64,000 nt of DNA from a virus (taxonomy: Duplodnaviria; Caudoviricetes), in the IMG/VR virus record IMGVR_UViG_2684623229_000001, positions 1 through 64,000 of that record, one strand, 5' to 3'. Every line of letters begins with the position of its first letter. Positions within the stretch are counted from its first letter, which is position 1. The notes beneath the pieces are model-generated. The model saw nothing but the letters and a program-made list of their open reading frames with translations, ran no database searches and was not told the DNA's origin. Positions 1 through 19,931 of this stretch are shown piece after piece. Made by a program: the position numbers and the translations under genes.

Positions 1-255
1 CTATTTAAAAATGTTATGTTGAATTGCATAAAAAAAGAAGCTTACCAAAGCTCCTACTGATAATCCTATATACCATTTTAAAACAGATACAAGTTGTTTT
101 AATTGATCACAAAGGTTCTCAATTTTAGTATCTATTTTAGATTGATTTTGTTCTATCTTATCAATTCTTTTCCCATGATCATTAAGTCTAATATCATGTA
201 CATTAATTTTTTCTTCTAGTCTTTTATGTTTTTCTTCACAAACTTTTAACTCCAC
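1..255 (-). CDS. XhlA-family holin-like/haemolysin lysis protein
   Basis: 84 aa; N-terminal coiled coil plus one C-terminal TM helix (WYIGLSVGALVSFFFYAI); follows tail genes; GGAGG RBS. Confidence 0.75.
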   Translation of the reverse strand: MELKVCEEKHKRLEEKINVHDIRLNDHGKRIDKIEQNQSKIDTKIENLCDQLKQLVSVLKWYIGLSVGALVSFFFYAIQHNIFK

Positions 256-326
256 ATTATACCTCCATTAAATAAAACACATCTTTTGTATATACTTTTA
301 ATCTATAGCCTTTTTTCTTATATTAC

Positions 327-371
327 AAAAAAATTAGAGCAATAGAAATAATATCTCTGCTCTAATTTTTT
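327..371 (-). terminator. Intrinsic terminator-like hairpin after the adhesin array
   Basis: AAAAAATTAGAGCA...TGCTCTAATTTTTT inverted repeat with A/T tails. Confidence 0.6.
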
Positions 372-410
372 ACAATAAAAAAAGACCTATTATGGTCATC
401 TAATTTATCT

Positions 411-1415
411 TTATTTAGTTTTACACATTGTTAACTTAAATTGATCATCACATAAATCTAGTATTTTATAATCATTACAATTGTATTTGATGGATTTATT
501 ATTCTCATCTGTATCAACTAATTCAATATTATCTATAACTTCATTAATATCTAATTGAAAATCAGTTTTCCAAATATCATTTTCATCTTTAGTCATAGGA
601 AATTCTTTATTATTCAAATTTTGGGTTATTATATTTACATCATCTGCACCATATTTATTGTACCAATTTTCTAATTGAATATTATCTGTAGGTTGTCCAA
701 GATTAATAAAGTTTGATTTAGTTGAATAATAATTTTTATTTTGATTAATTAAATATTTTTTATTTGTAAACTCTATTACTTCATTATATATTTCTAAATT
801 ATCTAACGAACCTTTTAAATAATATTCTTTTGAGTCTGCTAATCCACCTATAGAAAAATTTCTATTATAATAAGAAATATTTTCATGAGTTAATTTTGGC
901 ATTTGTTCAACTGGATTTATTAAATCATCGATATATATTTTAGCTATATTATTATCAAAAGTTAATAATATATCATGCCACTTACTATCTATTAAACTGC
1001 ACTTATATTTTAGATCAAATACAACTTGCCAAGAACTATCTTGTTTTCCAGAAGCAAACCTTATTTCTTGTGTATCCCTTAAATAAGAACACTGTAAGCT
1101 TGCACTGTTTTTATAATTATCATTTCCTACATAAAAAATGACATTCTGATTTTTAATTAAATCATTTTGTAGTTTTATTCTAAATTTAACACTCTTCTTT
1201 CCTAACGGTATTATTGAATTATTAAAATTAATATAATCAGATTCACCATTAAAATTTCTAGCATTACCATCTATTCCAATAATACTTGTTGTACCAACAT
1301 AAATACCATTATATTTTCCTGTACCGTCTGTACAAGTATTGCCACTTGTTTCTTCAAATTTATATTGTGCTACTAAGTTATGGCCATAATCTTTTTTAGG
1401 TATATATTTTTCCAC
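411..1415 (-). CDS. LamG/concanavalin-like domain + C-terminal module D (putative receptor-binding subunit)
   Basis: LVAQYKFEETSG...WHDILLTFD...GSLDNLEIYN LamG-like signature; C-terminal ~115 aa homologous to 4789..5595. Confidence 0.75.
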   Translation of the reverse strand: MEKYIPKKDYGHNLVAQYKFEETSGNTCTDGTGKYNGIYVGTTSIIGIDGNARNFNGESDYINFNNSIIPLGKKSVKFRIKLQNDLIKNQNVIFYVGNDNYKNSASLQCSYLRDTQEIRFASGKQDSSWQVVFDLKYKCSLIDSKWHDILLTFDNNIAKIYIDDLINPVEQMPKLTHENISYYNRNFSIGGLADSKEYYLKGSLDNLEIYNEVIEFTNKKYLINQNKNYYSTKSNFINLGQPTDNIQLENWYNKYGADDVNIITQNLNNKEFPMTKDENDIWKTDFQLDINEVIDNIELVDTDENNKSIKYNCNDYKILDLCDDQFKLTMCKTK

Positions 1416-1480
1416 TATATCACTTCCAATCTATATCTTAAAATGATTTTCTTTAAAATGAATATTTTACATTACCTTCA

Positions 1481-2824
1481 TTATTCTCTCATTAACACTT
1501 CAAATTTGCCATTATTAATTTCTTTAATTTTATCTGATATTTTATAATTATTACAACCATATTCAATGTACTTTTTATAATTTTCTTCTATTAGATTTAT
1601 GTTATTCTTTATATCATTTAGATTAATATCAAAAGATTTGTAATAATCTTTTTCTAGCTTTGTAGGTATTTTTTTATTATTTAATTCTTTAGTAAGTATA
1701 GATAAATCATTATAACCATATTCATCTATTAAATTATCTAATTCTTCATTATTATCTATCTCTCCTAAATCTATATAATTATTATTTATTGAGTAATAGT
1801 TATTATTTTGTTTTATTAAATATTTTAAAACCCTCCACTCCCAATTAGCATTATAAATATCATATGGTTTATATCCTACATCTACTAATTTATTCCATGT
1901 ACTTTTATTAGAACTAACAATATTAAATGGAGTTGCTCCGAAATTTGCTGTTATAGTTCCACCTTTATTTTCTCCATTATTATTTATCATAATGACAGTA
2001 TATACTTCATTCTCTAATGTAATTGTATAATTTGTATCTAATATACCATTAATATAAAAATTTATAATATGATTATCTAAATCAAAAGCCATTCCTATAA
2101 ATGTATTTTTCATAGCATTAATTACACAAGTTTTAATATTACTTGGAAATTGAGATATAGAAGTATACCCTGATAAACTAGCTTCATAAGTAGCCAAACC
2201 TAATGTACATACATTGGGCATATCATTTACTAAAAATTCTGCATAAAACTTACCATTAGTAATAAACTTTGTTGCTTTTATCCCATGATATTCATAGGGA
2301 GGAGTTTTTGAAAGAGAAGCTGTTAAATTATTATTACTTAAGGTATAATTAGTTGTTTTATCATTAGGACTCCATGTTATTATTGATGATAAATTAGGAT
2401 TATAAGGCTTCAACTTTCCATTTTCGTCTATGTCTATTGAATCTAAACCAAACCATCCATACTGATTATCCGTTTTTCTTTCAATATATATTTCAGCACT
2501 ATATTCTTTAAAACTAGGCATTTCTTTTTCAAAAACTAATACTAATGAAGCAGGCGTGATTGGATATATATACTCCACATAACTATAAACAATATTATTT
2601 ATTTTTATTTTAACATCTTTTGAATGACTATTATTCGTAAATACTAATATTCTTATTTTACTTCCAACAAAATTAAAACATATTTTATCTCCTACTGTAT
2701 TTGAATAATGAGAATCATAATCTGTTTTCCATTCATTTCCGATGTAGCTGATGTTTTTATCAGTATCATCATACCTTATCCATCCACTTTCAGGTTGCAA
2801 TAATTGTTCTCCTATTGTAGCCAC
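1481..2824 (-). CDS. PESGW domain + SPRY-like domain + C-terminal module C (putative receptor-binding subunit)
   Basis: N-terminus shared with 3811..4518; LSNNNL...GKFYAEF...IGMAFDLD...FYING...ANFGATPF SPRY-like; C-terminus homologous to 5649..6446. Confidence 0.75.
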   Translation of the reverse strand: MATIGEQLLQPESGWIRYDDTDKNISYIGNEWKTDYDSHYSNTVGDKICFNFVGSKIRILVFTNNSHSKDVKIKINNIVYSYVEYIYPITPASLVLVFEKEMPSFKEYSAEIYIERKTDNQYGWFGLDSIDIDENGKLKPYNPNLSSIITWSPNDKTTNYTLSNNNLTASLSKTPPYEYHGIKATKFITNGKFYAEFLVNDMPNVCTLGLATYEASLSGYTSISQFPSNIKTCVINAMKNTFIGMAFDLDNHIINFYINGILDTNYTITLENEVYTVIMINNNGENKGGTITANFGATPFNIVSSNKSTWNKLVDVGYKPYDIYNANWEWRVLKYLIKQNNNYYSINNNYIDLGEIDNNEELDNLIDEYGYNDLSILTKELNNKKIPTKLEKDYYKSFDINLNDIKNNINLIEENYKKYIEYGCNNYKISDKIKEINNGKFEVLMRE

Positions 2825-2837
2825 TTTATATCACCTC

Positions 2838-3809
2838 CTACACTTCCCTAAATAATATATTACAAATATAACCATTTTTCTTTAAGTTATCTATTGGTCT
2901 AAAAGGTTCACAATTATAAATCATTTCGCATTCTTTTTTTTCTAAATCATCTGTATATACAAGTAATTTAATTCCTTCTAAATTTTCAAATTTACTTAAT
3001 AATAAATCTTTAGTTATTTTACTAATATCACTAAATCCATTACTATTAAAATTATTTTCATCTAATGTTTGTAATGAAGCTTGTACTAAATTGCTCTCAT
3101 TTAATGTATATAAATTATTGTTTTTATCTTGAATTAGATATTTATTTGCTGTAAATTCTATAGCTTCATTATATATTTCTATTTCATCAAGAGAACCGTT
3201 AAAAAAGTAAGGTGGAAGACTTGGATTTCCTGTTTTACCAACAAACAAATTATAACTTGCATTTGTCGTCTCTATTACTAATGGTGTTCCTGCAACATCC
3301 TCATTTATTAAATCATCTATATAAATTTTTGCTGAATTTGTACTTGTAGTACCATCCCAAGTAAATAATACAGTATGCCACTCGCCATCACAAACTGTCT
3401 TATTTGAAGATAACAATAGATTATATGTTCCTGGTGTGCCTTTACTAATATTTACATATACTCCTTTTGAATCATTGATTGCGAATGAAAATCCATAATT
3501 AGCAGTAGCTCCCCCACTATTATTTATAATAAATCCGAATGAAGTTGTTGTTGTTTTTATTTTAAATTTAATACTTTTCTTGCCTATAGGTATTACTTGA
3601 TTACTAAATGTTATATACTCATTTGTGCCGTTAAAAGTTCTATAAGTGTTACTTATTCCTTGTGCTATATCAGTAACGTTAGTAGTACCTATATATGTTC
3701 CGTTATAAGTACCTTTTGAATCTAAACATACTGTACCACTTGTTTCATTAAATTTATAATCTGCTACTAAACTAGCTAAATAATCTTTTTTAGGATAATA
3801 TTTTGCCAT
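2838..3809 (-). CDS. LamG/concanavalin-like domain + C-terminal module B
   Basis: N-terminus paralogous to 411..1415 (PKKDY...YKF.ETSG...DGEWHTVLFTWDG...GSLDEIEIYN); ends PFRPID.LKKN..ICNILF.EV like 6459..7169. Confidence 0.75.
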   Translation of the reverse strand: MAKYYPKKDYLASLVADYKFNETSGTVCLDSKGTYNGTYIGTTNVTDIAQGISNTYRTFNGTNEYITFSNQVIPIGKKSIKFKIKTTTTSFGFIINNSGGATANYGFSFAINDSKGVYVNISKGTPGTYNLLLSSNKTVCDGEWHTVLFTWDGTTSTNSAKIYIDDLINEDVAGTPLVIETTNASYNLFVGKTGNPSLPPYFFNGSLDEIEIYNEAIEFTANKYLIQDKNNNLYTLNESNLVQASLQTLDENNFNSNGFSDISKITKDLLLSKFENLEGIKLLVYTDDLEKKECEMIYNCEPFRPIDNLKKNGYICNILFREV

Positions 3810-3810
3810 C

Positions 3811-4518
3811 TTATTTCACCTCACTTATACTCATAAAATCATTACCAAAAGGTATCTCAAATAACTTACCACTACCTAGATTCCCCTTATCTATACCATT
3901 AATGATTTGTGTATTGATAGTTTCAGTTAATAAATTTAAATCATCTATACCAAAAGTTCCAAAATCAGTTTGATTTAATATTTCTTTTCCTTCTAATTCT
4001 GTAATGGATTCATAATTGCCATTTTTATAAAATTCGGATTTTATTGTATAATAATTATTATTTTGTTTTATAAGATATTTATATAAATTAGGATTATAAG
4101 GTTTCAATTCTCCATTTTCATCTATATCTATTGCATCAAAGTCATATTCTTTATTTTCTGTGTTTATTACTTTTATATGATGTTCTTTATATTTTAGATT
4201 TTGTTTTTGAAATTGTAATATCTGAGTACCACTTCCTATCTTTCCATTTAATATATATATTACATTATCAATAATAATTTTAACATTCTCAGAATAAGCA
4301 TTGCTTGTTGAATTGTTTTGCCCAATAATTCTTATTTTATCTCCAGTAAAATTAAATCTTAATTCTCCATTTGTCTGAATATAAGAAGCCGTTGTTTTAT
4401 AATATGAAGCATAATTCGTATGTATCCAATCTCCAATATAACTTATATTACTATCGGTGTCATCATATCGTTTCCATCTACTTTCGGGTTGTAATAATTG
4501 TTGTCCTATTTGAGCCAC
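3811..4518 (-). CDS. PESGW domain + C-terminal module A
   Basis: QLLQPESRWKRYDDTD N-terminus; C-terminus YYTIKSEFYKN...GIDDLNLLT...GKLFEI shared with 7185..7973. Confidence 0.7.
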   Translation of the reverse strand: MAQIGQQLLQPESRWKRYDDTDSNISYIGDWIHTNYASYYKTTASYIQTNGELRFNFTGDKIRIIGQNNSTSNAYSENVKIIIDNVIYILNGKIGSGTQILQFQKQNLKYKEHHIKVINTENKEYDFDAIDIDENGELKPYNPNLYKYLIKQNNNYYTIKSEFYKNGNYESITELEGKEILNQTDFGTFGIDDLNLLTETINTQIINGIDKGNLGSGKLFEIPFGNDFMSISEVK

Positions 4519-4531
4519 CTTATATCACCTC

Positions 4532-4785
4532 CTATACTTCCTTAAATAATATATTACAAATATCACTATTTTTCTTTAATTTATCTATTGGTCTAAACTC
4601 CTCGTCATTAACAATTCTTTTTTCAGTATTATCTACCAAATACCTCTTACTATCTTATAATTTTGTATCAATTGATGCAGGAGAATAGGTTATTGTATTA
4701 TATGAGACTCCATAAAAATTAAATTTGAAGTATTCATCCATGCTCCTGCATAACTTATATTAATATCTTTAATAGTCCTTTTCTG
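4532..4785 (-). pseudogene. Decayed array member (PESGW-type fragments + end of module B)
   Basis: Manual - strand translation gives DINISYAGAW, a frame change to FKFNFYG, a stop, then ...FRPIDKLKKNSDICNILFKEV*, matching the end of 6459..7169. Confidence 0.65.
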
Positions 4786-4788
4786 TAT

Positions 4789-5595
4789 CTATTTTTCCCT
4801 ATACTGCATGATGTCAAATTCATCATCACATAAATCTAGTATTCTATAATTATTGCAATCATATTTAATAGATTTATTATTCTCATTTATATCAACCAAG
4901 TCAATATTATCCGTAACATCATTAATGTCTAATTGAAAATCAGTTTTCCATATTCCATTTTCATTTTTAGACATGGGAAACTCTTTATTATTTAGATTTT
5001 GAGTTATGATATTTACATCACCTGAACCATATTTGTTATACCAATTTTCTAATTGAATATTATCTATAGGTTGTCCAAGATTTAAGAAATTAGAATTAGT
5101 TGAATAATAATTTTTATTTTGATTTATTAGATATTTTTTAAATATATACGGATTATATTTTTTTATAATTCCGTTGTCGGCTATGTCTACTATATCAAAA
5201 GATATATATCCTTCATCTGTGCCGAAATGTTCTATAATTATTGAGTGTTCTTTATTATCCCAAATAGGACTTTCGTAATAACATGCATGACCATTTACTT
5301 GCCCTAAAGGAGAACTATGCTTTATAGTTACACCATCTATAATTATATTTAGATTCATATTTCTCCCTTCAGTAGTATAAATTTGGTTAAGTAATCTAAA
5401 TTGCTTACCTATGATATTAAATTTTACTGCTGAATATTTTGTTAAATCTTGTGAAAAATGTACATCTCCTAAGTAGAAATTAGTTTTATCTGAATATACT
5501 TTTTTACTCATATTAATATATTCAAAATTTTCATTATCATTATTTATTCTATTCCAGCCTTGTTCCGGAACTAGATAAACATTTCCCAATGCCAT
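4789..5595 (-). CDS. Divergent PESGW domain + C-terminal module D
   Basis: PEQGWNRIN...KEHSIII...FDIVDIADNGIIKKYNP; C-terminus highly similar to 411..1415. Confidence 0.7.
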   Translation of the reverse strand: MALGNVYLVPEQGWNRINNDNENFEYINMSKKVYSDKTNFYLGDVHFSQDLTKYSAVKFNIIGKQFRLLNQIYTTEGRNMNLNIIIDGVTIKHSSPLGQVNGHACYYESPIWDNKEHSIIIEHFGTDEGYISFDIVDIADNGIIKKYNPYIFKKYLINQNKNYYSTNSNFLNLGQPIDNIQLENWYNKYGSGDVNIITQNLNNKEFPMSKNENGIWKTDFQLDINDVTDNIDLVDINENNKSIKYDCNNYRILDLCDDEFDIMQYREK

Positions 5596-5648
5596 AGTAC
5601 ATCACTTCCAATTCTATTTAAAATGAATATTTTATATCGTTCTCATTA

Positions 5649-6446
5649 TTATTCTTTCATTAACACTTCAAATTTAGCATTATTGATTTCTTTAATTTTA
5701 TCTGATATTTTATAATTATTGCAGCCATATTCAATATATTTTTTATCATCTTCTTCTATAAGATTTATACTAGCTTTTACATCATTTAGATTAACATCAA
5801 AAGACTTATAATAATCATTTTCTAGCTTTGTAGGTATTCTTTTAGTATTTAATTCTTTAGTAATAATTGATAAATCATCATAACCAGAATTGTTTATTAA
5901 ATTATATAATTCTTCATTGTTATCTATCTTTCCTAAATCTATATAGTTATTATTTATTGAATAGCAATTATTATTTTGTTTTATCAAATAAAGTAATTCT
6001 TCATCAAAAAACTGTATTTGATTTATTGCTAACCAATCTGTTGAATGTAATTCTAAAAACTCTATCTTTAAAAATCTATATTTTTTAGTAGGATTTTTAT
6101 ACGCATATTCATTAATTTCATTATTATTTTTTATATTATCTATAACATCTATTTCTATATAGTCTATGCCATTGTTACTCATTGATATTTTTATCTTCTT
6201 AGGTAAATATGATATATCATTTCCTTGTATACTTATTTTTGAAGGACTTACTGGATTAATAAAATCTATCTTTAGCCATTCTGTATTATTAGGATATTGT
6301 ATTTGAAATCCATCATAACTAGTACATGTAATATGATTATCAAAAGAAAGATATGGTATATATTGTTTTCTTCCAGTATGGTATCTTGATGATGTAAAAT
6401 TTTCTTGTTTTAAATTATCTGTTAAGTCATTTGACCATTTTCCCAT
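5649..6446 (-). CDS. Discoidin (F5/8 type C)-like domain + C-terminal module C
   Basis: EWLKIDF...PKKIKISMSNNG...KYRFLKI...AINQIQFF discoidin signature; C-terminus highly similar to 1481..2824. Confidence 0.75.
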   Translation of the reverse strand: MGKWSNDLTDNLKQENFTSSRYHTGRKQYIPYLSFDNHITCTSYDGFQIQYPNNTEWLKIDFINPVSPSKISIQGNDISYLPKKIKISMSNNGIDYIEIDVIDNIKNNNEINEYAYKNPTKKYRFLKIEFLELHSTDWLAINQIQFFDEELLYLIKQNNNCYSINNNYIDLGKIDNNEELYNLINNSGYDDLSIITKELNTKRIPTKLENDYYKSFDVNLNDVKASINLIEEDDKKYIEYGCNNYKISDKIKEINNAKFEVLMKE

Positions 6447-6458
6447 ATATACACCCTC

Positions 6459-7169
6459 CTATACTTCCTTAAATAATATATTACAAATATCACTATTCTT
6501 CTTTAATTTATCTATTGGCCTAAAAGGAATTATTTCTGTTTCTAAACTGACATCAGTTTTATTCATATCATCTGTCCACATTAGAAGTTTAAGATTAGAC
6601 TTATCTGGAAAAGCAATATTCAATTGTTCTTCTCCAATTACTGTCGCATCTATAAAACCATTATTTATAAAATTATTTTCATCTAATTCTTGTGAAGGTG
6701 ATAAGACTATATCTGTACCATTAAATGTATATAGCTGAGATTTATATTGAAATAATATAAACTTTTCTAAAACAATTGGATTGATTAATATTGGTAAATC
6801 GAGATTAGCTTCAGCATTATAAGATACTGACATAGCTACTATTTTTAAAACTTTCATTTTCTGTATTGTATCTAGATTAAATGTTTTTTGCCATACATTA
6901 TTATTAGGAAAACTATAAGTTGAATGCTCAATAAAATTTATACCATCTAATGAATATAAAATTTTAAACTTTGTGACATTACAGTAGTCTAAAGTCCAAC
7001 TAGGATACCCAGATGATAACTTAATTGATTCCAAACAAAAATAATTATTATTTTTGTTAATTATTGTAAAATAACCTTTTGTATTTTTTTGTTGTATACC
7101 TCTATATTTGCCTTGGTATATACTATCATAATTAAATATATAATCATTATTTATACTACATTGAGACAA
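6459..7169 (-). CDS. Discoidin-like domain + C-terminal module B
   Basis: VTKFKILYSLDGINF motif; C-terminus shared with 2838..3809. Confidence 0.65.
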   Translation of the reverse strand: MSQCSINNDYIFNYDSIYQGKYRGIQQKNTKGYFTIINKNNNYFCLESIKLSSGYPSWTLDYCNVTKFKILYSLDGINFIEHSTYSFPNNNVWQKTFNLDTIQKMKVLKIVAMSVSYNAEANLDLPILINPIVLEKFILFQYKSQLYTFNGTDIVLSPSQELDENNFINNGFIDATVIGEEQLNIAFPDKSNLKLLMWTDDMNKTDVSLETEIIPFRPIDKLKKNSDICNILFKEV

Positions 7170-7184
7170 TTAAATCATCCCCTT

Positions 7185-7973
7185 CTATTTTATATCTATA
7201 TTATCTATTTTTTTAAACTCATTATTAAGTCTAATTTCAAACAACTTCCCATTACCTAATTCCTCTTTATCGATTCCATTAATAATTTGAGTATCTATAG
7301 TTTTAGTTAATAAATTCAAATCATCTATACCATAAGTTTCAAAATCGGTTTGTGTTAATGTTTCTTTTCCTTCTAATTTATTAATAGGAACAACTTGCTC
7401 ATTTTTATAAAATTCAGATTTTATTGTATAATAATTTGATTTTTGTTTGATTAAAAATAAGCTATTAATATTCAATTTATCATATCCATTTGGCTTATTA
7501 TATTTAAAAGGTTTTTCTCCAAAGTTAACTATTAACTCTTGCAATTTTGAACCTTTAAATACAAGAATTTCTAAATATAATTCTGAATTATTTAAATTAG
7601 TAGATCGAACACCTTCAGATATTCCATTTTTATAAAACTCTAATGTTCCGTTATTAATGGTACTATCATATAAAATACCTATTGTATCTCCAATTTTCCA
7701 AGCTTCTCCGTAACCATTACCATCACTCCAATAACTATTACCTATATTATAATTAGTTAAACTAGTATCCTTTTTAGCTAAAGCAATGATACTATTATTA
7801 GCATTAAAGCTATTTATATAAATTTCAATATATATCTTTTGTTTTTGGGTTTTATTTACTGGTAATGTTGAACGAACACCTTGCCAACTAGTCAATACTG
7901 ATGTAACACTTCGATTATTATTTGATAACTGTACAGTTCCCATATCATTTGGATTTAAATAGTATGCATTCAT
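7185..7973 (-). CDS. SPRY-like domain + C-terminal module A
   Basis: LSNNN...GDTIGILYD...LEFYKNG...VNFGEKPFKY SPRY signature; C-terminus shared with 3811..4518. Confidence 0.75.
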   Translation of the reverse strand: MNAYYLNPNDMGTVQLSNNNRSVTSVLTSWQGVRSTLPVNKTQKQKIYIEIYINSFNANNSIIALAKKDTSLTNYNIGNSYWSDGNGYGEAWKIGDTIGILYDSTINNGTLEFYKNGISEGVRSTNLNNSELYLEILVFKGSKLQELIVNFGEKPFKYNKPNGYDKLNINSLFLIKQKSNYYTIKSEFYKNEQVVPINKLEGKETLTQTDFETYGIDDLNLLTKTIDTQIINGIDKEELGNGKLFEIRLNNEFKKIDNIDIK

Positions 7974-8061
7974 ATTAAGCTTTCTCCCTTCTTCTATTAA
8001 TAACTTTCATTTTTTATTTCAATTTTCTAAATAAAAGCTTAGTATCAAAAATAATACTCAT

Positions 8062-9147
8062 CTAATAATTAATTTTAATATCTCCGCTAAGTTTACATTC
8101 TACTTGCAGTAATGTATTACTAGCGTAAATTACTTCATACAAGTCTTCTTTAACCTGTTTCCATCTTCCAACACCATCATATTGCAAATCTAGTTTATCT
8201 ATCTCTTCAATATCTGTTATGCTGTCCATGCTAAACAAATAAGCAAATCTTATCTTTTTAGTAGTAATTAATTCATTCCAGAATACATCATTAATAGCAT
8301 TAAAAGTAGCAATATTCATCCCACTTTTCCTTACGTCATCTACAGTTAAATTAACATTTACCCATTTTTCTCCACTAAATGTTTTCCATGTGTTACCGCT
8401 ATCCACACTACAAACTATTCTTATATTGTTACCATTAGCAGTTAATCTAAAATAATCTATATGATCTACATTACTTAAATTCATATCACCTTTTGGAATA
8501 AGTAAACGATCAAATGGGATAGCCTTTGTCTTTAATTTTTGAATAACTCCATCTTCAAATGTTTCAAAACCTTCTATTTTTTTAAATAGCGTTTTATCCA
8601 CATTAACACTATATTCTGTAAAGCTTTCTGTATCTTGAACAACTTCAAAATCACTTATATGATTTGTTTCTAAATGTGCTTTACCATCAAAGGTCATCAT
8701 TCTATCGTCAATAAAATCATTACTCTCATCATTAGTAAATTCGTTTTTAACTGATATTAAATCCTGTGTATTTTCTGTATCATACCTCAAAACATTCACA
8801 CGAGGCACTTTAAAATCTACTGTGTTAACAGGGATGTTAACGATTCTAGGCGTTTCAGCACTTCCCACTATACCCATTTTGGATATTTGTTTCATCCCTG
8901 CGCCAACTATTTCTCCTGCATCTATACCATCAATAGTTGTAAACTTTCCTGTTTCCTCTGAATAAGCTACTAATTGTTTATTTTTCTTATTAGTAACATC
9001 TACATCCTCTAGCTCCTCAAATTTTGTAATTCTTTTATCTATTATTTCCTTTTGTATTTTCTCACTTGACCATCCAGTTTTATTAGAAATTACACTATCA
9101 TCTAAAATTATATCCTTGTCCAAAGTTACATTAAAAAATTCACTCAT
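8062..9147 (-). CDS. Putative virion structural protein (fibre/baseplate)
   Basis: 361-aa ORF in the tail operon; TGWSSEKI and LEDVDV motifs resemble those of phage fibre proteins. Confidence 0.55.
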   Translation of the reverse strand: MSEFFNVTLDKDIILDDSVISNKTGWSSEKIQKEIIDKRITKFEELEDVDVTNKKNKQLVAYSEETGKFTTIDGIDAGEIVGAGMKQISKMGIVGSAETPRIVNIPVNTVDFKVPRVNVLRYDTENTQDLISVKNEFTNDESNDFIDDRMMTFDGKAHLETNHISDFEVVQDTESFTEYSVNVDKTLFKKIEGFETFEDGVIQKLKTKAIPFDRLLIPKGDMNLSNVDHIDYFRLTANGNNIRIVCSVDSGNTWKTFSGEKWVNVNLTVDDVRKSGMNIATFNAINDVFWNELITTKKIRFAYLFSMDSITDIEEIDKLDLQYDGVGRWKQVKEDLYEVIYASNTLLQVECKLSGDIKINY

Positions 9148-9158
9148 TAAGCCACCTC

Positions 9159-10166
9159 CTATTCACTAATAACTAAGTGAAAATCTCTAACTGCAAAATT
9201 ATGATTTTCTGCATTTTTAGTTATTTTTACATATATACCTTTACTTTCACGCTGTTTTATACTATCTATAGTTAAAGAGTCTGCATAATTTATACCATCG
9301 AAGGATAATTGTATTAAATCATTACTAGGTGTTTCAGTTCCTATTTTAATATTGTTATAATCCTTATCTCCTATATTTTTAATTGTTATTAGCTCTTCTA
9401 AATCTTGGAGCATAGCAGGACTAACATTAGTTACTACATTTCCATGATATATAATTTCAAAATTATATGGACTAAATACCCACATATCACCATATTGTAA
9501 CTGAAGAGCATCACTAGTATATATCACTTTTCTATCCCTATCTTTAAATGTAAAATATCCACTTATTTTGCTATCTATAAATACTTTACATTCCATATCT
9601 GAATTAAATAATCTAGTTTTAATTAAATTATTATCTAAATCATATAATTCACATAAAGTATTTTCTGGGAAATTCTGAATAGTTACATAGGGTTTAGCAT
9701 AAACCTTGTAATTATTTAATATAAAATCTTCATCACTATACTTCATAAAACCTTGCTTTGTAAGTGGCTCTGCAAATTCCATTCCGCCCATGTTTGTATA
9801 ATTTTTGCCATCATTACTTGAATAAGCTTGTATATAATTATCTTTCTTAAGTATTTTCCAATATCTATTTTGTTCATTTGATTTTAAATCCTTAATACCA
9901 AAAATATGATCGCTATTCCCTAAATAAAGCATGGAATAATCCATATCTTTTATATCATTGAAATTTTCTTTTTCAACCTCAATAACAAATTCTTTATAAT
10001 CAAATTTTCTTTCTATTTTATTATTACTTATTAGTTTTAATTTACCTGTTTTAATATCTCTAGTTATATTGCTTTCTCCCGCAAAATCAGCAAAAGAAGA
10101 AGCCAAGAAAAAATTCTCAGCTTCTAATAATCCATTTTTAACTTGTATAAGTTTCATTGAGATCAC
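9159..10166 (-). CDS. Putative virion structural protein, lectin-like N-terminal half
   Basis: 335-aa ORF in the tail operon; AYSSNDGKNYTNMG ConA-like motif. Confidence 0.5.
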   Translation of the reverse strand: MISMKLIQVKNGLLEAENFFLASSFADFAGESNITRDIKTGKLKLISNNKIERKFDYKEFVIEVEKENFNDIKDMDYSMLYLGNSDHIFGIKDLKSNEQNRYWKILKKDNYIQAYSSNDGKNYTNMGGMEFAEPLTKQGFMKYSDEDFILNNYKVYAKPYVTIQNFPENTLCELYDLDNNLIKTRLFNSDMECKVFIDSKISGYFTFKDRDRKVIYTSDALQLQYGDMWVFSPYNFEIIYHGNVVTNVSPAMLQDLEELITIKNIGDKDYNNIKIGTETPSNDLIQLSFDGINYADSLTIDSIKQRESKGIYVKITKNAENHNFAVRDFHLVISE

Positions 10167-10168
10167 CT

Positions 10169-10423
10169 CTAAACTCTAGGCTGCATTATATAATCATATG
10201 GTACAAACTCAACTATTTGTATATCTTTAGTTCCTATACCATTTGCTAATAATGTATGTGCTTCCTCTAGTGCATCTTCATAACAATTAGTAGCGTAAGA
10301 TGTTATTTCACTTCCATTTTTATCTGTTTCATGGCCGTATGGTAATTGGGCTAAGGTTTTATTTTTTAATATTCCCCACATCTTTTGTCTAGTTTTTTTA
10401 AAATCTATTGTACTTGTTAACAT
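10169..10423 (-). CDS. Hypothetical protein of the tail operon
   Basis: 84 aa, GGAGG RBS, tightly packed with neighbours. Confidence 0.6.
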   Translation of the reverse strand: MLTSTIDFKKTRQKMWGILKNKTLAQLPYGHETDKNGSEITSYATNCYEDALEEAHTLLANGIGTKDIQIVEFVPYDYIMQPRV

Positions 10424-10428
10424 ACTAT

Positions 10429-12324
10429 CTACCTCCCAAATATATTTTTCTTTTCAAAGTTCTGTGTTTCTATCATGTAATTTCTCTTACCTTTTAGTTT
10501 ATCTAAATCTTTCATAATATCACCATTAGCTGCTACTTTATTAAATTTCCTTTCAATATCCATAGCTTTCGGATTATGCCAAATTGGTACTAAATTAAAA
10601 TGATGTTGTTTTAGATAATCTATTAAATTAGCTATAAGTAATCCTATAGCTTGTAATCCATTTTCAGTATTAAGGAAGTGTACCTTTTCAGCCTCCCACC
10701 TGATCCATCTATATGCTCTAATATAATCTGCATTTGGACTTGATGTATCTAACGTATACCAATCATAAATTAATTCCATTATAAATTGAATAGATTCTTT
10801 GCCTGTGCAGCTTAACCAAGCTTGTGCATTCTTATGCCATATCATCGCTAGAATGTTTATTAAATCTAACATTATTTCAGTACTAACTTCCATAGGTGGA
10901 ATATTATAATCCACTCCCCAATCTTTTCCCCATTCAATAGGATGATTACTAAATCTTAAATATTCATAATCTAAATTATTTAATAGATCATTATTATATA
11001 TATAGTCTTTATTAGGAACAATTAGCCTATCTATTGGACTTGTAGACTTCAGCCACCACCATCTTTTGGTTATTTCAATAAACTTATTTTTATTAGGTGT
11101 ATATATTTGTCTTATAGCTTCATTATTTAAATATTTATTACTTTGTCTATAAATTTGCCATATACTTAAATTTAATAAATCTCTTTCTATCTGCTTATAG
11201 ATATTAATTATAGGGCTATTATCTAAATATTTTTCGTTATGTTTAAATATATTAGTTGTATATTCCCTATCTAAATATCTATTATTATATTTAAATATAG
11301 ATCTTATAGCTTGCCTATCTAAATACCCGTTGATACTTTTATCTATAAATTTAAATACATCTTTATAAAAATATTTTTTATTATGGTCTTTGCATATTTC
11401 TTTATGTGCTATTTTATTTAATGCATTTTTAATTCTATATTTTTCTATATCCTTTAGAGCTATATTATACATTAACATGGTTTTATAATTTCTATCTATA
11501 TCTTTTAAATCTAATATTTTTAAATTATTTATACTTGTATCTATATCTATTCCAATTATAATATCTTTGTTTAACATTGTTTTATTACTTATTTTAGCTA
11601 CTTCTTTTAGATTGGATCTATCTATAAATCTATATTTATTTTTATTTATATTTTTAAATCCATGTTTCTCAACAAACTTCAATTTATCTATATCTATTTC
11701 CTTGCAATAGATTCTATAAAGATAATATCCAATATTCTTTTCTATATTTATATACTTCTCTAGTTTTAAATTTTGTAAAGATTCACCTTTAAATATTTCT
11801 TTTTCTACTATTAAATCTGTATATATACTTTTGAATTTATTCAGTTGTAGATTTTCTCTATCTATAGATAAATTTATTAAATTATTAGCTTTATTTAGTT
11901 GTAGAATTTCTATTTCCAATAACTTATTGTTATAACATATGGATATATCTTCATTTTTTCTTACATCAAGTTCCTTACTTATTTTTATATTTATACCTAT
12001 ATATTTTATTTTATCTAAAGATATAGTATTGTTTTTATTTATTTCTTTATTTATTAACTTTAATTCTTTTTTAAATTCTTTTTTTATATCAGTAACTTTC
12101 TTGGATATATATTTATTCTTTTCTTTCTCTATATTATCTTTAGGTTGTTTATATAATAATTTATTTTCCTTAACCTTATCTATTTCACCCATTGTTTCTT
12201 TGTAAAATAATTTTTCTGTAGTCTTTACTACTTTTTCTGTAGTATCGTATATAAAAGTTCCACTAGAAAAAGCATTGTCCCCTACATATTCAAAACTACA
12301 TAGGGGTATTTTATGTAGGGGCAT
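10429..12324 (-). CDS. Putative tail-associated protein with K/I/D/N-rich repetitive central region
   Basis: 631 aa; recurring I-D/N/Y-K units followed by a W-rich C-terminal domain. Confidence 0.55.
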   Translation of the reverse strand: MPLHKIPLCSFEYVGDNAFSSGTFIYDTTEKVVKTTEKLFYKETMGEIDKVKENKLLYKQPKDNIEKEKNKYISKKVTDIKKEFKKELKLINKEINKNNTISLDKIKYIGINIKISKELDVRKNEDISICYNNKLLEIEILQLNKANNLINLSIDRENLQLNKFKSIYTDLIVEKEIFKGESLQNLKLEKYINIEKNIGYYLYRIYCKEIDIDKLKFVEKHGFKNINKNKYRFIDRSNLKEVAKISNKTMLNKDIIIGIDIDTSINNLKILDLKDIDRNYKTMLMYNIALKDIEKYRIKNALNKIAHKEICKDHNKKYFYKDVFKFIDKSINGYLDRQAIRSIFKYNNRYLDREYTTNIFKHNEKYLDNSPIINIYKQIERDLLNLSIWQIYRQSNKYLNNEAIRQIYTPNKNKFIEITKRWWWLKSTSPIDRLIVPNKDYIYNNDLLNNLDYEYLRFSNHPIEWGKDWGVDYNIPPMEVSTEIMLDLINILAMIWHKNAQAWLSCTGKESIQFIMELIYDWYTLDTSSPNADYIRAYRWIRWEAEKVHFLNTENGLQAIGLLIANLIDYLKQHHFNLVPIWHNPKAMDIERKFNKVAANGDIMKDLDKLKGKRNYMIETQNFEKKNIFGR

Positions 12325-12338
12325 TTATACCACCTCTC

Positions 12339-13577
12339 TTATTTAGTTGTTTTATAACATCTAATAGCAACACAATAATTTATATTAGCACTATTGTTTA
12401 AGAAACAATATGGCGCAGTAATTTTAAATTTCTTATAATATTCTTCCTCTTCTGTATCTTTCTTATATGCTAATCTATCTGTATCGTTTATTGCACTGGC
12501 ATCACCTACAAGTACATTAATCATTTTACCTCTTTCCATATCAACTGGATGTACAAGTGTTATATCTGAGAATTGATGTTTTTTATGATTATATCTACTA
12601 CCTTCTACATTACATTTATCCATAAAAGGATTAGTAGCATAAAAAGCTGGATAATGTGGTTGATATGGCATACCTATTTTATTAGCTATCATACAAACAT
12701 CTGTTACTCCTGTTGCAGTTCTTTCTCCATAAACCTTTGAATAATTTGGTTCTATATCAGAAGATACAGTTATACCAAAATTATATTTATCATCTGTATA
12801 AGCTGAATCCTCTACTGGTTTTAAAGCTCCAATATAAGCATAAGATGTAAGATAGTTTTCATAAGGATGAACATCCGCAGATGGATCTCCACATAATACT
12901 AAGTTTATACTATCTTTAGTTATATTTATCCAATATTGAACTGGTAAAAAGTCTTTAATTTCTGGCTGCAATTTTCTATACCATGCTAATCTATAATTAT
13001 ATTCAGCTTGTATATTTTTAGATATACCTAAATCTGTTTTATCTGCATTTAATTTATCTGATATTTGCAATTTTATATTGTTTATAGAATTGCTTTTAGT
13101 CATAGCACTAACATATGCGTTATAATCTCCACTTTTACTCCATCTATCAGAAGCTCCAGCCATCATTTCTAATACTTGTGCATCTGTTCTACTAAAACTA
13201 TCCCCATTGCCGTTATAATAAGTATGCAACTTATTAAAGTCAATTAATGCCTTTTTTTCTTCTTTTGTCAAGTCCGCTTCTTCTCTATCTATTTTTACAT
13301 AAAACTCTTTTCCATAGGTTGTTGTTGCTTTTATAATACACTTATCATTTTGAGAACCTACTGTAAATACAGTATCTACTTTATCTGTCTTAGAATTATC
13401 TTTTATAAGATTTATTGTACTTCCTTCTCCTGTTGATCCTATTTTATTTATGCTATCTGGATAAACTAAATCCCATTTATATATACCTGAATTTTGTGTT
13501 ATTTCAGTTGCTAATGTTTTTACTAAGTTTTTTACACTTGTATTTCCTTCAACAAAATAAAAATTATCTGTAGCCAT
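12339..13577 (-). CDS. Putative virion structural protein
   Basis: 412-aa ORF with GGAGG RBS in the baseplate region. Confidence 0.55.
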   Translation of the reverse strand: MATDNFYFVEGNTSVKNLVKTLATEITQNSGIYKWDLVYPDSINKIGSTGEGSTINLIKDNSKTDKVDTVFTVGSQNDKCIIKATTTYGKEFYVKIDREEADLTKEEKKALIDFNKLHTYYNGNGDSFSRTDAQVLEMMAGASDRWSKSGDYNAYVSAMTKSNSINNIKLQISDKLNADKTDLGISKNIQAEYNYRLAWYRKLQPEIKDFLPVQYWINITKDSINLVLCGDPSADVHPYENYLTSYAYIGALKPVEDSAYTDDKYNFGITVSSDIEPNYSKVYGERTATGVTDVCMIANKIGMPYQPHYPAFYATNPFMDKCNVEGSRYNHKKHQFSDITLVHPVDMERGKMINVLVGDASAINDTDRLAYKKDTEEEEYYKKFKITAPYCFLNNSANINYCVAIRCYKTTK

Positions 13578-13599
13578 TTTATCTACCTCCTGTTATCAA

Positions 13600-14580
13600 T
13601 TATTTATTTAAATTTGTTATTTTTAAAGTATTTAAGTCCATTATAAATATCTCTTTTAGATCCCTATTTGCTCCTAAATTAACATTAAATTTTTTAAGTA
13701 GTTTATTACCATAAGTTCTATATTGATATATTTCTAAAGTTACAGGCTCTTTTAGTTCTACTCCATTAAAATTCCTTATGCTTATAAGAAGCTTTTTATT
13801 TTTGTACCCTTTAACACTTATTATTTCAGGATTTTTGTTTGTTTTATGACTTGTATAATCAAAATTAAGATAAAATCCACCATGGGATTTATTACCATAC
13901 CAAACTTTTTTACCATCTATCTCGCCATGTAAATCTATATCTGCATCTGTATTCTCTTCCCAATTCATTACTACTGCTATATCCCATTCATTATCTATAT
14001 CCTCTATGCCTGGTGGTGGTTCTACTGGAATGTTAGAATCCTCTCCATCTATATACTCTAAATCCACCATTGTTTGTCTACTATTGCCGCTTAAATTATG
14101 AAAAATAAAAGAAATAAGAGTATTAGCATTTACTTTATAAAATGTATTAAAGTATTTATGCTCTCCTATTTCCTTAGTTGTCGCATTATCTATTATTTTG
14201 ATTTTATTAATTTCTAAGCTATATTTATCTTCTTTTTTCCAGCCTGTTTGATTGAAATGCAATCCTGTAATATATATATCTTTGTCAAATTTAAATTGTT
14301 CCGTGTAATCATTTTGTATTGCTGGTATATCTAATAATATACCTTTCACCTTTTGAATGCCTTCAATTTTTCTGTATATAAAGGCATCAATTTTTTTCTT
14401 TAATCCTTCATATTGTACACTTGGCAATAAATTCTTTAATTGTTGTAGTAAATCTTGTATATTGTTGGTATTTATATCTGGATAATTAGTTCTTATATTA
14501 TCATCTATCAGACTTAATAAATAATTTTTTAAATCCTCTGTAAGCTCTTCAAAATTAATTATATATTTAGGTAAGCTCAA
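13600..14580 (-). CDS. Paralog of the caspase-fusion N-terminal domain + YfaP-like C-terminal domain
   Basis: Likely TTG start at 14580; shares LP.Y..NF.EL, G.QK..G..L.IPA, ITG, TKE.GEHK with 14582..15931; C-terminal W..N.DADIDLH...PEII motif. Confidence 0.6.
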   Translation of the reverse strand: MSLPKYIINFEELTEDLKNYLLSLIDDNIRTNYPDINTNNIQDLLQQLKNLLPSVQYEGLKKKIDAFIYRKIEGIQKVKGILLDIPAIQNDYTEQFKFDKDIYITGLHFNQTGWKKEDKYSLEINKIKIIDNATTKEIGEHKYFNTFYKVNANTLISFIFHNLSGNSRQTMVDLEYIDGEDSNIPVEPPPGIEDIDNEWDIAVVMNWEENTDADIDLHGEIDGKKVWYGNKSHGGFYLNFDYTSHKTNKNPEIISVKGYKNKKLLISIRNFNGVELKEPVTLEIYQYRTYGNKLLKKFNVNLGANRDLKEIFIMDLNTLKITNLNK

Positions 14581-14581
14581 A

Positions 14582-15931: not shown

Positions 15932-15945
15932 ATTATTGCCACCTC

Positions 15946-16296
15946 CTATACATAATCTATTATTTCTAATTTACCATGATTATCTTTAATTAATTGTATT
16001 GTTTTATTTGTATTATTAGGATACGTTGTTTTAATTCTATATACTTTACCTTCTACATTTCTAATTAGTTCTTCTTGCCATTGCATATCTGTTCCATTAG
16101 CATATATAAATTTATATGCTTTATTATTGCTATCTCTAATTATTCTACATGGATATTCGGGTAATTCCCCAGTATATTTTGAATCTTCATTTGTATTTAT
16201 TTGATTTTTGAAATTTCTTTTTCTTAATTCTTGATTTAAAATATAGACTACTGGCTCCCTAAAATTTTTATATCCCATATGTGCCATTTTAATCAC
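15946..16296 (-). CDS. Hypothetical baseplate-region protein
   Basis: 116-aa ORF packed in the operon. Confidence 0.55.
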   Translation of the reverse strand: MIKMAHMGYKNFREPVVYILNQELRKRNFKNQINTNEDSKYTGELPEYPCRIIRDSNNKAYKFIYANGTDMQWQEELIRNVEGKVYRIKTTYPNNTNKTIQLIKDNHGKLEIIDYV

Positions 16297-16299
16297 CTA

Positions 16300-17815: not shown

Positions 17816-17818
17816 CTC

Positions 17819-19234: not shown

Positions 19235-19297
19235 CTCCCACCTTTGGGAATAAAAAGTTTTCTAACTTCATTTAAATAATAATTTAAATTTAAAAAT

Positions 19298-19916: not shown

Positions 19917-19931
19917 TTTATTATCCCCTCA

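Follow-up and report, generated by a model that had tools for sequence, protein, structure and literature searches.

A hypervariable cassette array of probable tail-tip adhesins in a clostridial siphovirus-tail element that lacks capsid genes

Why would a phage-like element carry, between its tail and lysis genes, eight consecutive genes that keep their C-termini and differ in their N-termini? Phages and tailocins change their targets mainly by exchanging receptor-binding parts as modules, and in the cases of such exchange known to us the N-terminal anchor is kept and the C-terminus is varied. The eight genes occupy positions 411–7973 on the minus strand of the window, that is, the whole stretch of 64,000 nucleotides analysed, and judged by their sequences they belong to a small, sharply defined family of opposite polarity. 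We consider it probable, at roughly 0.6, that they are a hypervariable cassette array of tail-tip adhesins in a probably domesticated, capsid-less siphovirus-tail element. A literature search covering few subscription journals returned no description of the module, the array, or a tailocin of C. sporogenes/Group I C. botulinum.

The eight open reading frames delimited in a first-pass annotation were all recovered exactly on the minus strand. They are co-oriented, and each encodes a variable N-terminal head followed by a conserved C-terminal module of 88–116 residues. The genes, in gene order, and the one large gap are:

7185–7973, minus strand: G1, SPRY-like head and module A1 (7185–7457), core A clade (100/99)
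6459–7169, minus strand: G2, weak discoidin-like head and module B1 (6459–6764), B clade (100/99)
5649–6446, minus strand: G3, discoidin head and module C1 (5649–5990)
4789–5595, minus strand: G4, PESGW head and module D1 (4789–5139), 'internal D' lineage
4519–4788, minus strand: non-coding gap between G4 and G5, with a B-module remnant, a ribosome-binding site and a repeat (4521–4597)
3811–4518, minus strand: G5, PESGW head and module A2 (3811–4077)
2838–3809, minus strand: G6, LamG head and module B2 (2838–3143)
1481–2824, minus strand: G7, PESGW and SPRY-like heads and module C2 (1481–1822)
411–1415, minus strand: G8, LamG head and terminal module D2 (411–761), adjoining the lysis genes

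Pairing of the C-termini by BLASTP gave the order A-B-C-D followed by A-B-C-D again, as had been proposed. A Shine-Dalgarno-like site precedes each frame (8/8), and the gaps between G1 and G2 (15 nt) and between G5 and G6 (1 nt), in both cases an A gene followed by a B gene, indicate that these pairs are translationally coupled. NCBIfam assigned no family to any of the eight proteins. No public sequencing run contained more than 0.25 of the sampled words of the array, and none of the runs listed as matching was of RNA.

Several of the head labels are based on sub-threshold Pfam scores. LamG was detected in G6 (E 5e-14, 53.1 bits) and G8 (E 1.5e-10, 41.8 bits), both against a cut-off of 27.6, and discoidin in G3 (E 4.9e-7, 30.4 bits against 28.2). 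The SPRY match of G1 (E 9e-6, 26.2 bits against 26.3) fell just under its cut-off, and the discoidin match of G2 (E 1.8e-3) and the SPRY match of G7 (E 1.1e-3) were weak and below theirs. PESGW heads, found in G4, G5 and at the N-terminus of G7, have no Pfam family and share a match to phrog_10059. These Pfam and phrog assignments agree with the earlier proposals that no module carries the same head type in both sets and that the PESGW head occurs on A, C and D modules (G5, G7 and G4, respectively). When relatives are included, LamG and discoidin heads occur on all four module types and PESGW on A, C and D, and the heads of 129 representatives and 91 locus proteins comprise discoidin, LamG, SPRY, BNR and Kelch propellers, DUF6273, Glug and others, at least nine kinds in all. 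The genes stand where receptor-binding protein genes usually stand, at the distal end of the tail module and before the lysis genes, but in place of the canonical N-terminal anchor their N-termini have unrelated folds.

All eight modules can be aligned as a single family. In an all-against-all BLASTP the C modules share 82.6% identity over 115 aa, the D modules 79.3% over 116 aa and the B modules 44.6% over 101 aa; A1 and A2 are 63% identical at the protein level, and between C and D modules the identity is 44%. The clear DNA similarity previously noted within the C and D pairs amounts to 88% and 87%, respectively, over 300 nt, and the A pair shows 78% over 245 nt. Pairwise DNA alignments place the abrupt onset of identity at the KYLIKQN.. 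junction, upstream of which the sequences cannot be aligned, and a 64-nt junction repeat is present in 6/8 modules and absent from both B modules. In the module tree, B (26 rows, 100/99), D (29 rows, 99/96) and core A (21 rows, 100/99) form clades and C is split into three groups; D1 of G4 belongs to a clade (WIN_4/L019_4/L023_4/L025_4, 100/96) that represents an 'internal D' lineage common to other double arrays. From these comparisons A, B, C and D appear to be four old paralogous module types. The dN/dS values of 0.17–0.19 for the C and D modules, next to 0.04–0.39 for the structural genes, indicate purifying selection on the modules, with the B modules evolving fast (0.66).

The AF2 model of the C module (pLDDT 92.8) shows a compact, globular fold in which no extended interface is obvious. 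Its comparison by Foldseek with the PDB (best E 0.55) and BFVD (best E 0.22) and by VIA-align wide (best Z 3.6 over 36 residues) gave no usable match and hence no structural relative pointing to an anchoring role. The C module has no relative in Pfam, the PDB or BFVD, an absence of fold matches that does not prove a new fold. An ESM Atlas feature search with the module reached a best score of 0.78, below lead level, and neither G5 nor the module profile gave anything meaningful when searched against PDB sequences. Among PHROGs, the modules of G3, G4, G7 and G8 match phrog_10667, a family of unknown function, at E 1e-17 to 1e-29 over about positions 282–441 of 718; the match of G6 is weak, and G1 and G5 match phrog_21039 instead.

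A profile built from the eight modules detected 194 proteins (clusters at 50% identity) among 1.84 billion representatives, with the match nearly always at the C-terminus. The reversed polarity suggested by the first-pass annotation was borne out, as the C-terminus is the conserved part in all 8 genes and in nearly all of the 150 relatives listed. Fusion of A and B in one protein is frequent in relatives: among the 150 listed representatives, the clear two-module proteins all run head-A-head-B (18/18), and none joins B to C or C to D. This fusion, together with the translational coupling of the A and B genes in the present array, suggests that A and B may act as one unit. The fusions could also be taken to mean that the modules bind head-to-tail in gene order and so assemble into a composite side fibre, in which the heads would stand out like a bottle-brush and the length would depend on the number of genes. 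That a module can be internal, with the next head after it, that array length varies and that neighbouring genes are tightly coupled would all fit such a fibre, which we nevertheless consider unlikely given that only A-B fusions were seen among the listed representatives and that the module model is compact.

Related loci were searched with six modules as query, and the comparison set consists of 27 loci in which modules were typed by their best BLAST match to the modules of this array, a typing that is uncertain below about 50% identity and that also underlies the tallies of fusions and of heads per module type given above. Arrays in these loci hold 2 to 8 modules. Six plasmid-type loci have A-B-D arrays, phiCT19406A and c-st have D plus one other module, and the remaining compositions include D-AB, C-C-C-D, A-B-C-C-D, A-B-C-D-C-D and AB-AB-C-D. 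Head-module pairings vary among the 27 loci and heads differ between strains, contrary to what invariant pairing would predict, and these comparisons show the array locus to be hypervariable population-wide. The A-B-C-D order described as fixed occurs twice here and is mostly kept in relatives, but the counts and composition are not fixed. This bears on the initial proposal of a tail-tip complex in which the four module types are docking subunits, taken here as obligate and present once each. Four well-separated module clades kept across elements, the A-B-C-D order of most loci and A-B fusions suggesting that at least A and B sit together are all compatible with it. However, functional-looking arrays of other compositions (A-B-D, C-C-C-D, AB-AB-C-D and others) do not require a fixed stoichiometry, and the order could be explained by homologous exchange between syntenic modules alone. 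An obligate A+B+C+D complex is therefore unlikely, because module counts vary between related elements.

Several traces of recombination support a hypervariable cassette array. The sequence from 5990 to 4462 is 97.9% identical over 1529 bp to a related locus (L019), and the match sets in exactly at the start of module C1; upstream of this breakpoint the heads are unrelated to those of L019. The PESGW part of G7 shares 93% DNA identity with a position-A head of locus L023, and the head of G5 together with its upstream sequence is of position-C type. Of a B module, 21 codons from its 3' end remain in the gap between G4 and G5, together with a ribosome-binding site of the type found between B and C and a 77-nt repeat at 4521–4597 (repeat family D6, 94%). 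The same join is present in L019, L023 and L025, and the gap is the scar of an event that joined two A-B-C-D sets. In pRSJ19_2-type plasmids a B/C hybrid module is found and the C gene is missing. No inverted repeats of ≥40 nt (0) were detected within 1–9200, and no recombinase or reverse transcriptase was matched among the scanned ORFs of 1–27 kb. With eight co-oriented genes, no such repeats and no recombinase or reverse transcriptase match, the locus does not resemble an invertase shufflon or a diversity-generating retroelement (DGR).

These observations are in line with what had been envisaged, namely heads that are interchangeable on conserved modules, since they differ from strain to strain, and recombination at the junction that needs neither invertase nor reverse transcriptase, to which the 5990 breakpoint, the B remnant and the B/C hybrid point. 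Head exchange by homologous recombination is well supported because breakpoints lie at module starts and because remnants and hybrid modules are found. Module DNA is 80–98% identical between elements and provides homology blocks of 250–350 bp flanking every head. As such a block lies on each side of a head, recombination between co-resident or incoming relatives swaps heads and keeps the A-B-C-D order. Exchange between syntenic modules would therefore maintain the order automatically, with no functional cause needed. The junction of about 17–64 nt common to A, C and D modules allows heads to hop between positions, and unequal crossing-over gives duplications, deletions and hybrid modules. These gene-level steps are shown by the sequence comparisons.

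The array is embedded in a tail element with the following further parts:

1–255, minus strand: XhlA-like lysis-cassette gene, bounding the array downstream
8062–9147, minus strand: p361, a conserved 361-aa tail-fibre-like protein (phrog_15809) directly upstream of the array
9159–22250, minus strand: remainder of a non-contractile tail module, with tail-tip proteins, tape measure, tube and four small connector genes
22937–26813, strand not assigned: early region, with a RinA-like activator, DnaC-like and DnaD-like genes, two Cro-like HTH genes and a divergent repressor

The segment 9159–22250 is syntenic with gp41–gp58 of phiCT19406A, in which annotated hemolysin/holin/endolysin genes come next after the XhlA-like position. 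The tail genes include those for tube, tape measure and tail tip, and no sheath match was found. The early region directly adjoins the connector genes, with no terminase, portal or capsid genes between, and the same capsid-less layout occurs in two other genomes of the species (G003 and G007). Head proteins of phiCT19406A gave no match within 1–27 kb, matching only a second prophage at 58–64 kb, and none in the flanks of G003 and G007 except for the gp41 connector gene; a capsid match was found in 0/5 related provirus records, which may be fragments. Because capsid, portal and terminase genes are lacking here and in G003 and G007, the element may be F-type tailocin-like. It has the non-contractile tail genes of an F-type tailocin, and its XhlA-like gene, repressor, Cro-like HTH genes and RinA-like activator correspond to the lysis cassette and regulators of its own that such an element has. 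In G003 and G007 an amidase gene follows downstream; the window itself stops within the lysis region. The element has kept DnaD- and DnaC-like genes. No integrase was found among the scanned G003 ORFs beyond the repressor, and a chorismate-synthase-like ORF, recognized by translation without a family scan, adjoins the element in G003 and G007. A chromosomal non-contractile tail cluster with lysis genes and regulators, and likewise without capsid, portal and terminase, is the F-type tailocin of C. histolyticum (10.64898/2026.06.17.733002), a precedent within the clostridia. The present element differs in keeping DnaD/DnaC-like genes and four head-tail connector genes and in having a multi-gene head-module array as its fibre region, and it is known here from its genes.

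An element without capsid genes and with one gene remnant between G4 and G5 could also be a defective prophage in which the array is decaying duplicated DNA of no present function. This we consider highly improbable, as all eight ORFs are intact and have ribosome-binding sites, modules and backbone are under purifying selection, and the capsid-less layout is kept in G003 and G007.

In the related loci the XhlA-like gene is 94–99% identical, and in each of three backbones (p361 siphovirus-type, pRSJ19_2-type plasmids and c-st-like) the array always lies where the tail genes end and the lysis genes begin. This boundary is a frequent site of morons, and a conserved C-terminal domain with a variable N-terminus is typical of the wall-binding architecture of Gram-positive lysins. 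The array proteins might accordingly be accessory lectins released at lysis and not part of the particle, or surface proteins of the lysogen, with the module serving, for example, in cell-wall attachment. Strand, spacing and coupling common to the array and the tail operon, and the use of the same slot in three unrelated tail backbones, argue against this and make it quite unlikely.

For tail-tip adhesins, p361 is a candidate docking platform. It lies directly upstream of the array in most related loci, and a homologue does so even at 23% identity in pRSJ19_2-type plasmids. It was found within 4 kb of modules in 13/19 module-bearing genomes, with 5/19 giving no p361 match, tallies that are lower bounds as some genomes of the genus were not scored. 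p361 cannot be a universal platform, because of these five genomes and because c-st-like backbones lack it. In its AF2 model (pLDDT 79) residues 130–326 adopt a jelly roll resembling those of CBMs (Z up to 7.9); Foldseek against the PDB found nothing at E ≤ 0.001, and a VIA-wide search gave generic jelly-roll/CBM rows only (Z ≤ 7.9). Homology of the module to the C-terminal domain of p361 was dismissed (hhalign probability 0.2%). We infer that the conserved module docks each adhesin on the tail tip, most likely on or near p361, and that the one or two lectin-like heads per protein (beta-sandwich or propeller), varying between strains, would bind glycans or proteins of the target-cell surface and give a multivalent, strain-specific particle.

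Parts of such a design are familiar from other systems. Carbohydrate-binding modules (CBMs) decorate adhesion devices of Gram-positive siphophages, as in BppA of Tuc2009, 'evolved' Dit and Tal/NPS extensions. As is proposed for the array, these devices equip the tip of a non-contractile tail with beta-sandwich domains of lectin or CBM type, carry several different binding modules per particle and evolve by exchange of these modules. Their CBMs are inserted into or after N-terminal anchoring parts of structural proteins, whereas the array encodes separate small proteins with a conserved C-terminal part of unmatched fold, in an ordered array of four paralogous module types and up to eight genes. 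Reviews of such adhesion devices exist (PMC6115969, PMC9437275). T4 Hoc has its particle-binding part at the C-terminus and its outward adhesive domains at the N-terminus. This is the polarity of the array proteins, if these attach to the particle as proposed, but Hoc, with its Ig-like domains, decorates the capsid as a single protein, in contrast to a shuffled array of several tail genes, and it is unrelated to the array proteins in sequence and fold. In the receptor-binding protein of Streptococcus thermophilus phages a variable region is flanked by conserved collagen-like repeats, and as in the array the conserved flanking DNA is a recombination substrate for swapping the host-specificity segment; there it concerns one gene, one variable region and repeats within a fibre, whereas the flanks in the array are complete folded domains encoded by adjacent genes. 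Phage tail fibres are also diversified by invertase shufflons (Mu Gin, P1 Cin) and DGRs, which, as is proposed for the array, present alternative receptor-binding ends on a constant particle, but variation of the array would arise between genomes by homologous recombination and not by a programmed switch within one genome.

Since three genomes share the capsid-less state of the carrier element, this lineage may possess a tailocin that has not been described. Tentatively, 1–27 kb may be a domesticated F-type tailocin of the Clostridium sporogenes/Group I botulinum lineage, its target range set by an array of up to eight lectin-like adhesins with a C-terminal docking domain of unseen fold, diversified purely by homologous cassette exchange between the four paralogous docking modules as the main hypervariable locus of the clade for strain competition. 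Competition between toxigenic and non-toxigenic strains of these clostridia is of practical interest, and the array may serve as a marker locus for strain-level diversity. With an anchor-like domain that has no known relative and four ordered paralogues that would act as a self-maintaining recombination scaffold, the array resembles a kit, driven by recombination, for altering what the particle adheres to, and, if this is true, it would be a natural 'plug-in' system for studying multivalent binding on a Gram-positive tail tip.

In transcription order, the array genes G1 to G8 occupy exactly the coordinates that the first-pass annotation had given them, as found in the ORF listing:

Array genes of the window
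G1, 7185-7973, minus strand, 262 aa
G2, 6459-7169, minus strand, 236 aa
G3, 5649-6446, minus strand, 265 aa
G4, 4789-5595, minus strand, 268 aa
G5, 3811-4518, minus strand, 235 aa
G6, 2838-3809, minus strand, 323 aa
G7, 1481-2824, minus strand, 447 aa
G8, 411-1415, minus strand, 334 aa

Every gene is preceded by a Shine-Dalgarno-like site and the intergenic gaps from G1 to G8 measure 15, 12, 53, 270, 1, 13 and 65 nt. Among the N-terminal heads, LamG is clear in G6 and G8 and discoidin in G3, the SPRY head of G1 scores at the cut-off, and the matches of G2 to discoidin and of G7 to SPRY are weak; a Pfam-less PESGW-initial domain matching phrog_10059 is found in G4, G5 and G7 (residues 1-146). 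These Pfam and phrog matches bear out the claim that each of the modules A to D carries a different head type in the two sets. The claimed pairing of C-terminal modules was likewise recovered by all-against-all BLASTP, with identities of 82.6% over 115 aa for the C modules (G3/G7), 79.3% over 116 aa for D (G4/G8) and 44.6% over 101 aa for B (G2/G6); the A modules (G1/G5) are 63% identical and C and D modules share 44% identity. A single family alignment takes in all eight modules, which have a common start motif of the KYLIKQNNNYY type. DNA identity is 88% over 300 nt for the C modules, 87% over 300 nt for D and 78% over 245 nt for A, and in pairwise alignments it sets in sharply at the junction, with zero alignment upstream of it.

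A profile search with all eight modules against 1.84 billion representative proteins retrieved 194 at E <= 1e-3, 109 of them at E <= 1e-10; the module family is small. Among the 150 proteins listed of these 194, the module is almost always C-terminal, and all 18 clear two-module proteins show the order head-A-head-B; P0102 and P0148 have a weak module-like piece at the N-terminus, followed by a B module. By sequence the module matches nothing in Pfam, NCBIfam or PDB, and a search of the ESM Atlas gave zero leads. The structure of the C module, predicted with 122 relatives in the alignment, is a confident, compact alpha/beta domain (mean pLDDT 92.8), for which Foldseek returned nothing usable from PDB (best E 0.55) or BFVD (best E 0.22), and a Foldseek-independent scan of 48,161 chains reached at best Z 3.6 over 36 residues. 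As several genomes match only the module start, about the first 50-65 residues, downstream of the 361-aa protein encoded next to the array, the module may combine a type-specific C-terminal part with a more widely distributed N-terminal element. Values of dN/dS are 0.17 for C1/C2, 0.19 for D1/D2, 0.35 for A and 0.66 for B, compared with 0.04-0.39 for backbone genes of the same element against the species genome G003, which argues that the modules are more than recombination linkers.

The way in which heads are exchanged can be read from related loci. Window positions 5990-4462 are 97.9% identical over 1529 bp to locus L019, and the match begins at the exact first base of module C1, spans G4 and the following gap and ends within the opening bases of G5. 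The heads upstream of 5990, discoidin in the window and PESGW in L019, are mutually dissimilar. At its end, the 270-nt G4-G5 gap holds a B-module remnant of 21 terminal codons and, after it, a ribosome-binding site of the position-C type. A 77-nt unit there (4521-4597) matches the ends of B1 and B2 at 94% identity, so that the G5 head, now on an A module, derives from a position-C gene. The PESGW part of G7, itself at position C, shares 93% identity over 509 nt with the head that a position-A gene carries in locus L023. In pRSJ19_2-type plasmids the module of the second gene begins as B and ends C-like and the C gene is absent; the otherwise similar IMG/VR record L038 has the C gene and keeps all four types. 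The hybrid-module gene of pRSJ19_2 (L002) lies at 13068-13997. The six A, C and D modules have in common a 64-nt junction repeat of 66-88% identity, of which a 17-nt stretch is identical in A2, C1 and C2 when the strings are compared by eye. No inverted repeats of at least 40 nt were found within window positions 1-9200, and neither a recombinase nor a reverse transcriptase was found among the scanned ORFs of 1-27 kb. Because of the breakpoint at the C1 start, the B remnant, the head hop, the hybrid module, the junction repeat and these absences, the gene-level mechanism is general homologous recombination between conserved module DNA, and the earlier proposal of head swapping at the junction without invertase or reverse transcriptase holds for the parts scanned. 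Such recombination gives rise to cassette swaps, position hops and unequal crossovers, and the fixed module order is its consequence, without need of a functional explanation.

Array composition was compared in 28 arrays, the window and 27 further loci from the genomes G003 and G007, three named genomes, IMG/VR proviruses, the complete siphovirus phage phiCT19406A, plasmid pRSJ19_2 and phage c-st; modules were typed by best BLAST match to the window's own modules and Pfam was run on 91 distinct proteins. The majority of arrays consist of one A-B-C-D set, and the other forms are as follows:

Other array forms among the related loci
A-B-C-D-C-D: L019
AB-C-D-AB-C-D: L023, L025
AB-AB-C-D: L016, L031
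A-B-C-C-D: L029, L030
C-C-C-D: L041
A-B-D: L002, L035-L037, L039, L040
D-AB: L043-L045
D and one other: phiCT19406A, c-st
five C-like, AB and D: L018

The first-pass annotation had proposed that A, B, C and D form one obligate complex, which is unlikely given that arrays exist without C, without A and B, or with single types doubled. For A and B, frequently found as one fused ORF of 446-633 aa, such fusions and translational coupling suggest that these two would act as a unit. The window has A and B as separate genes, a stop being followed by a restart 1 nt (3809-3811) or 15 nt (7169-7185) further on; many relatives have a single ORF. Head identity varies locus by locus: at a module identity of at least 55%, LamG heads occur on A, B, C and D in 5, 6, 7 and 5 cases, discoidin heads in 1, 7, 4 and 5 cases, and PESGW-only heads on A in 3, on C in 5 and on D in 2 cases, with none on B. 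Further heads include BNR and Kelch propellers, DUF1565, DUF6273, Glug and many that are unassigned. A maximum-likelihood module tree of 114 rows, whose clades are independent of the BLAST-derived type names, recovered B (26 rows, support 100/99), D (29 rows, 99/96) and a core A clade (21 rows, 100/99), with C modules split into three groups. Since one clade (100/96) unites the internal D modules of the window (G4), L019, L023 and L025, which are the four double arrays, the double set has a single origin common to several strains and is no private duplication of the window strain. Two genomes show eight or nine module matches.

The array is bounded on one side by the gene for the 361-aa protein (8062-9147, phrog_15809) and on the other by an XhlA-like lysis gene (1-255), and it occupies this position, following the final tail genes and preceding lysis, in three backbones: phiCT19406A-like siphovirus, pRSJ19_2-type plasmids of roughly 200 kb (a C. 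botulinum plasmid type), which encode a 426-aa relative of the 361-aa protein with 23% identity, and c-st-like. The pRSJ19_2 array is closely followed, on its downstream side, by two tyrosine recombinase genes. Module matches were found in 19 of 385 scored Clostridiaceae species genomes and matches to the 361-aa protein in 44 of 383, 18 of them full-length. A full-length 361-aa protein lies at most 4 kb upstream of a module match in 13 of the 19 module-bearing genomes, which are kin, and the association is therefore in part shared descent; in one of the 19 both matches are at contig ends and in five the 361-aa protein is unmatched. ORFs with only the module start (first 46-74 residues) directly follow full-length 361-aa relatives in G009, G052, G169, G176, G241, G244, G257 and G279. 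In the model of the 361-aa protein, confidence is low at the N-terminus and high in the C-terminal region, where residues 130-326 resemble CBM-type jelly rolls with Z up to 7.9, which is non-discriminating. Homology of this protein to the modules was rejected on direct comparison. Public NCBI sources label the family 'signal peptidase II', a name that no Pfam or NCBIfam model backs for a gene located within a tail operon and that is therefore likely a spread annotation error.

The element that carries the array has the following layout beyond it:

Further features of the carrier element
up to 22250: tail-tip genes, tape measure, tube protein with Ig-like end, four small connector genes
22937-23458: RinA-like activator, directly after the connector genes
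between activator and repressor: DnaC-like and DnaD-like genes, two Cro-like genes
26394-26813: divergent repressor

The phiCT19406A proteins for head, portal and terminase find no counterpart in 1-27 kb other than the gp41 connector gene; their matches are otherwise confined to a second, separate prophage at 58-64 kb. G003 and G007 have the same capsid-less layout at 81-97% protein identity (tape measure 69-74%) and zero head-protein matches, and in G003 host-type genes lie within about 3 kb of the repressor, with no integrase among the scanned ORFs beyond it. None of five related IMG/VR provirus records (24-35 kb, possibly fragments) has a capsid match. Purifying selection acts on one connector gene (dN/dS 0.09), a second being less constrained (0.39). 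Judged from its genes, the element has the anatomy of an F-type tailocin or a conserved defective prophage and may be F-type tailocin-like; it is a poor fit to a fully domesticated tailocin, because DnaD/DnaC and head-completion-type connector genes are kept. Tail, lysis, regulator and DnaD/DnaC genes make up the layout in the window (1-27000), G003 (L012, L047) and G007 (L013, L048), and the G003 and G007 elements adjoin a chorismate-synthase-like ORF, as read from translations by eye.

An F-type tailocin of C. histolyticum, identified through cryo-EM and mass spectrometry, is described in a preprint, in which its side fibre/receptor-binding protein is assigned through inferred homology with monocin (10.64898/2026.06.17.733002).

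Several other genes of the window are of note. The tail tube protein (19932-20819, minus strand, 295 aa) ends in a bacterial Ig-like Big_5 domain (E 6.5e-5), a further surface-exposed tail decoration. The tail-region protein at 14582-15931 (minus strand) resembles the neighbouring 340-aa protein in its N-terminus and has a caspase-like Peptidase_C14 domain as its C-terminal half (Pfam E 1.5e-17; NCBIfam caspase_w_EACC1 E 6e-16); its phiCT19406A counterpart exists only as a short 186-aa form. In the stretch that separates the second prophage from the capsid-less element, an adjacent gene pair (33613-36321 and 36339-37718, minus strand) resembles a binary ADP-ribosylating toxin of clostridia, the 902-aa protein having PA14 and Binary_toxB domains 1-3 and the 459-aa protein an ADP-ribosyltransferase exoenzyme domain (E 6e-72). 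The tape measure of the second prophage (47941-54938, minus strand) consists of two ORFs, 53619-54938 and 47941-52560, split by an HNH endonuclease gene (52724-53569).

Taken as a whole, the reading of the array as adhesins with exchangeable heads on conserved, tail-tip-docked modules is given a probability of roughly 60%. Modular architecture, four module lineages, recombination, purifying selection, the tail-to-lysis position and the capsid-less carrier are demonstrated, and the doubt sits almost wholly in the protein-level steps. The conserved module would anchor each protein at the tail tip, since a conserved part presumably anchors and a variable part binds, and the heads would bind surface carbohydrates or proteins, by analogy with the usual roles of LamG, discoidin, SPRY and propeller families.

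The nearest known systems are the CBM-decorated adhesion devices found in Gram-positive siphophages, receptor-binding proteins of S. thermophilus phages, with recombination at conserved flanks, and Hoc-like proteins, with reversed polarity; for the carrier element, F-type tailocins are among the closest. The array differs from these kinds in its conserved C-terminal domain of unmatched fold, in four ordered paralogous module types that jointly are a recombination scaffold, in separate small genes as opposed to domains of one fibre, and in having up to eight genes per element, and it is undescribed in the literature searched. That binding parts are exchanged as modules is well known, and the docking role is putative; the array is noteworthy for its reversed polarity, its new domain, its scaffold of ordered paralogues and a possible tailocin context.
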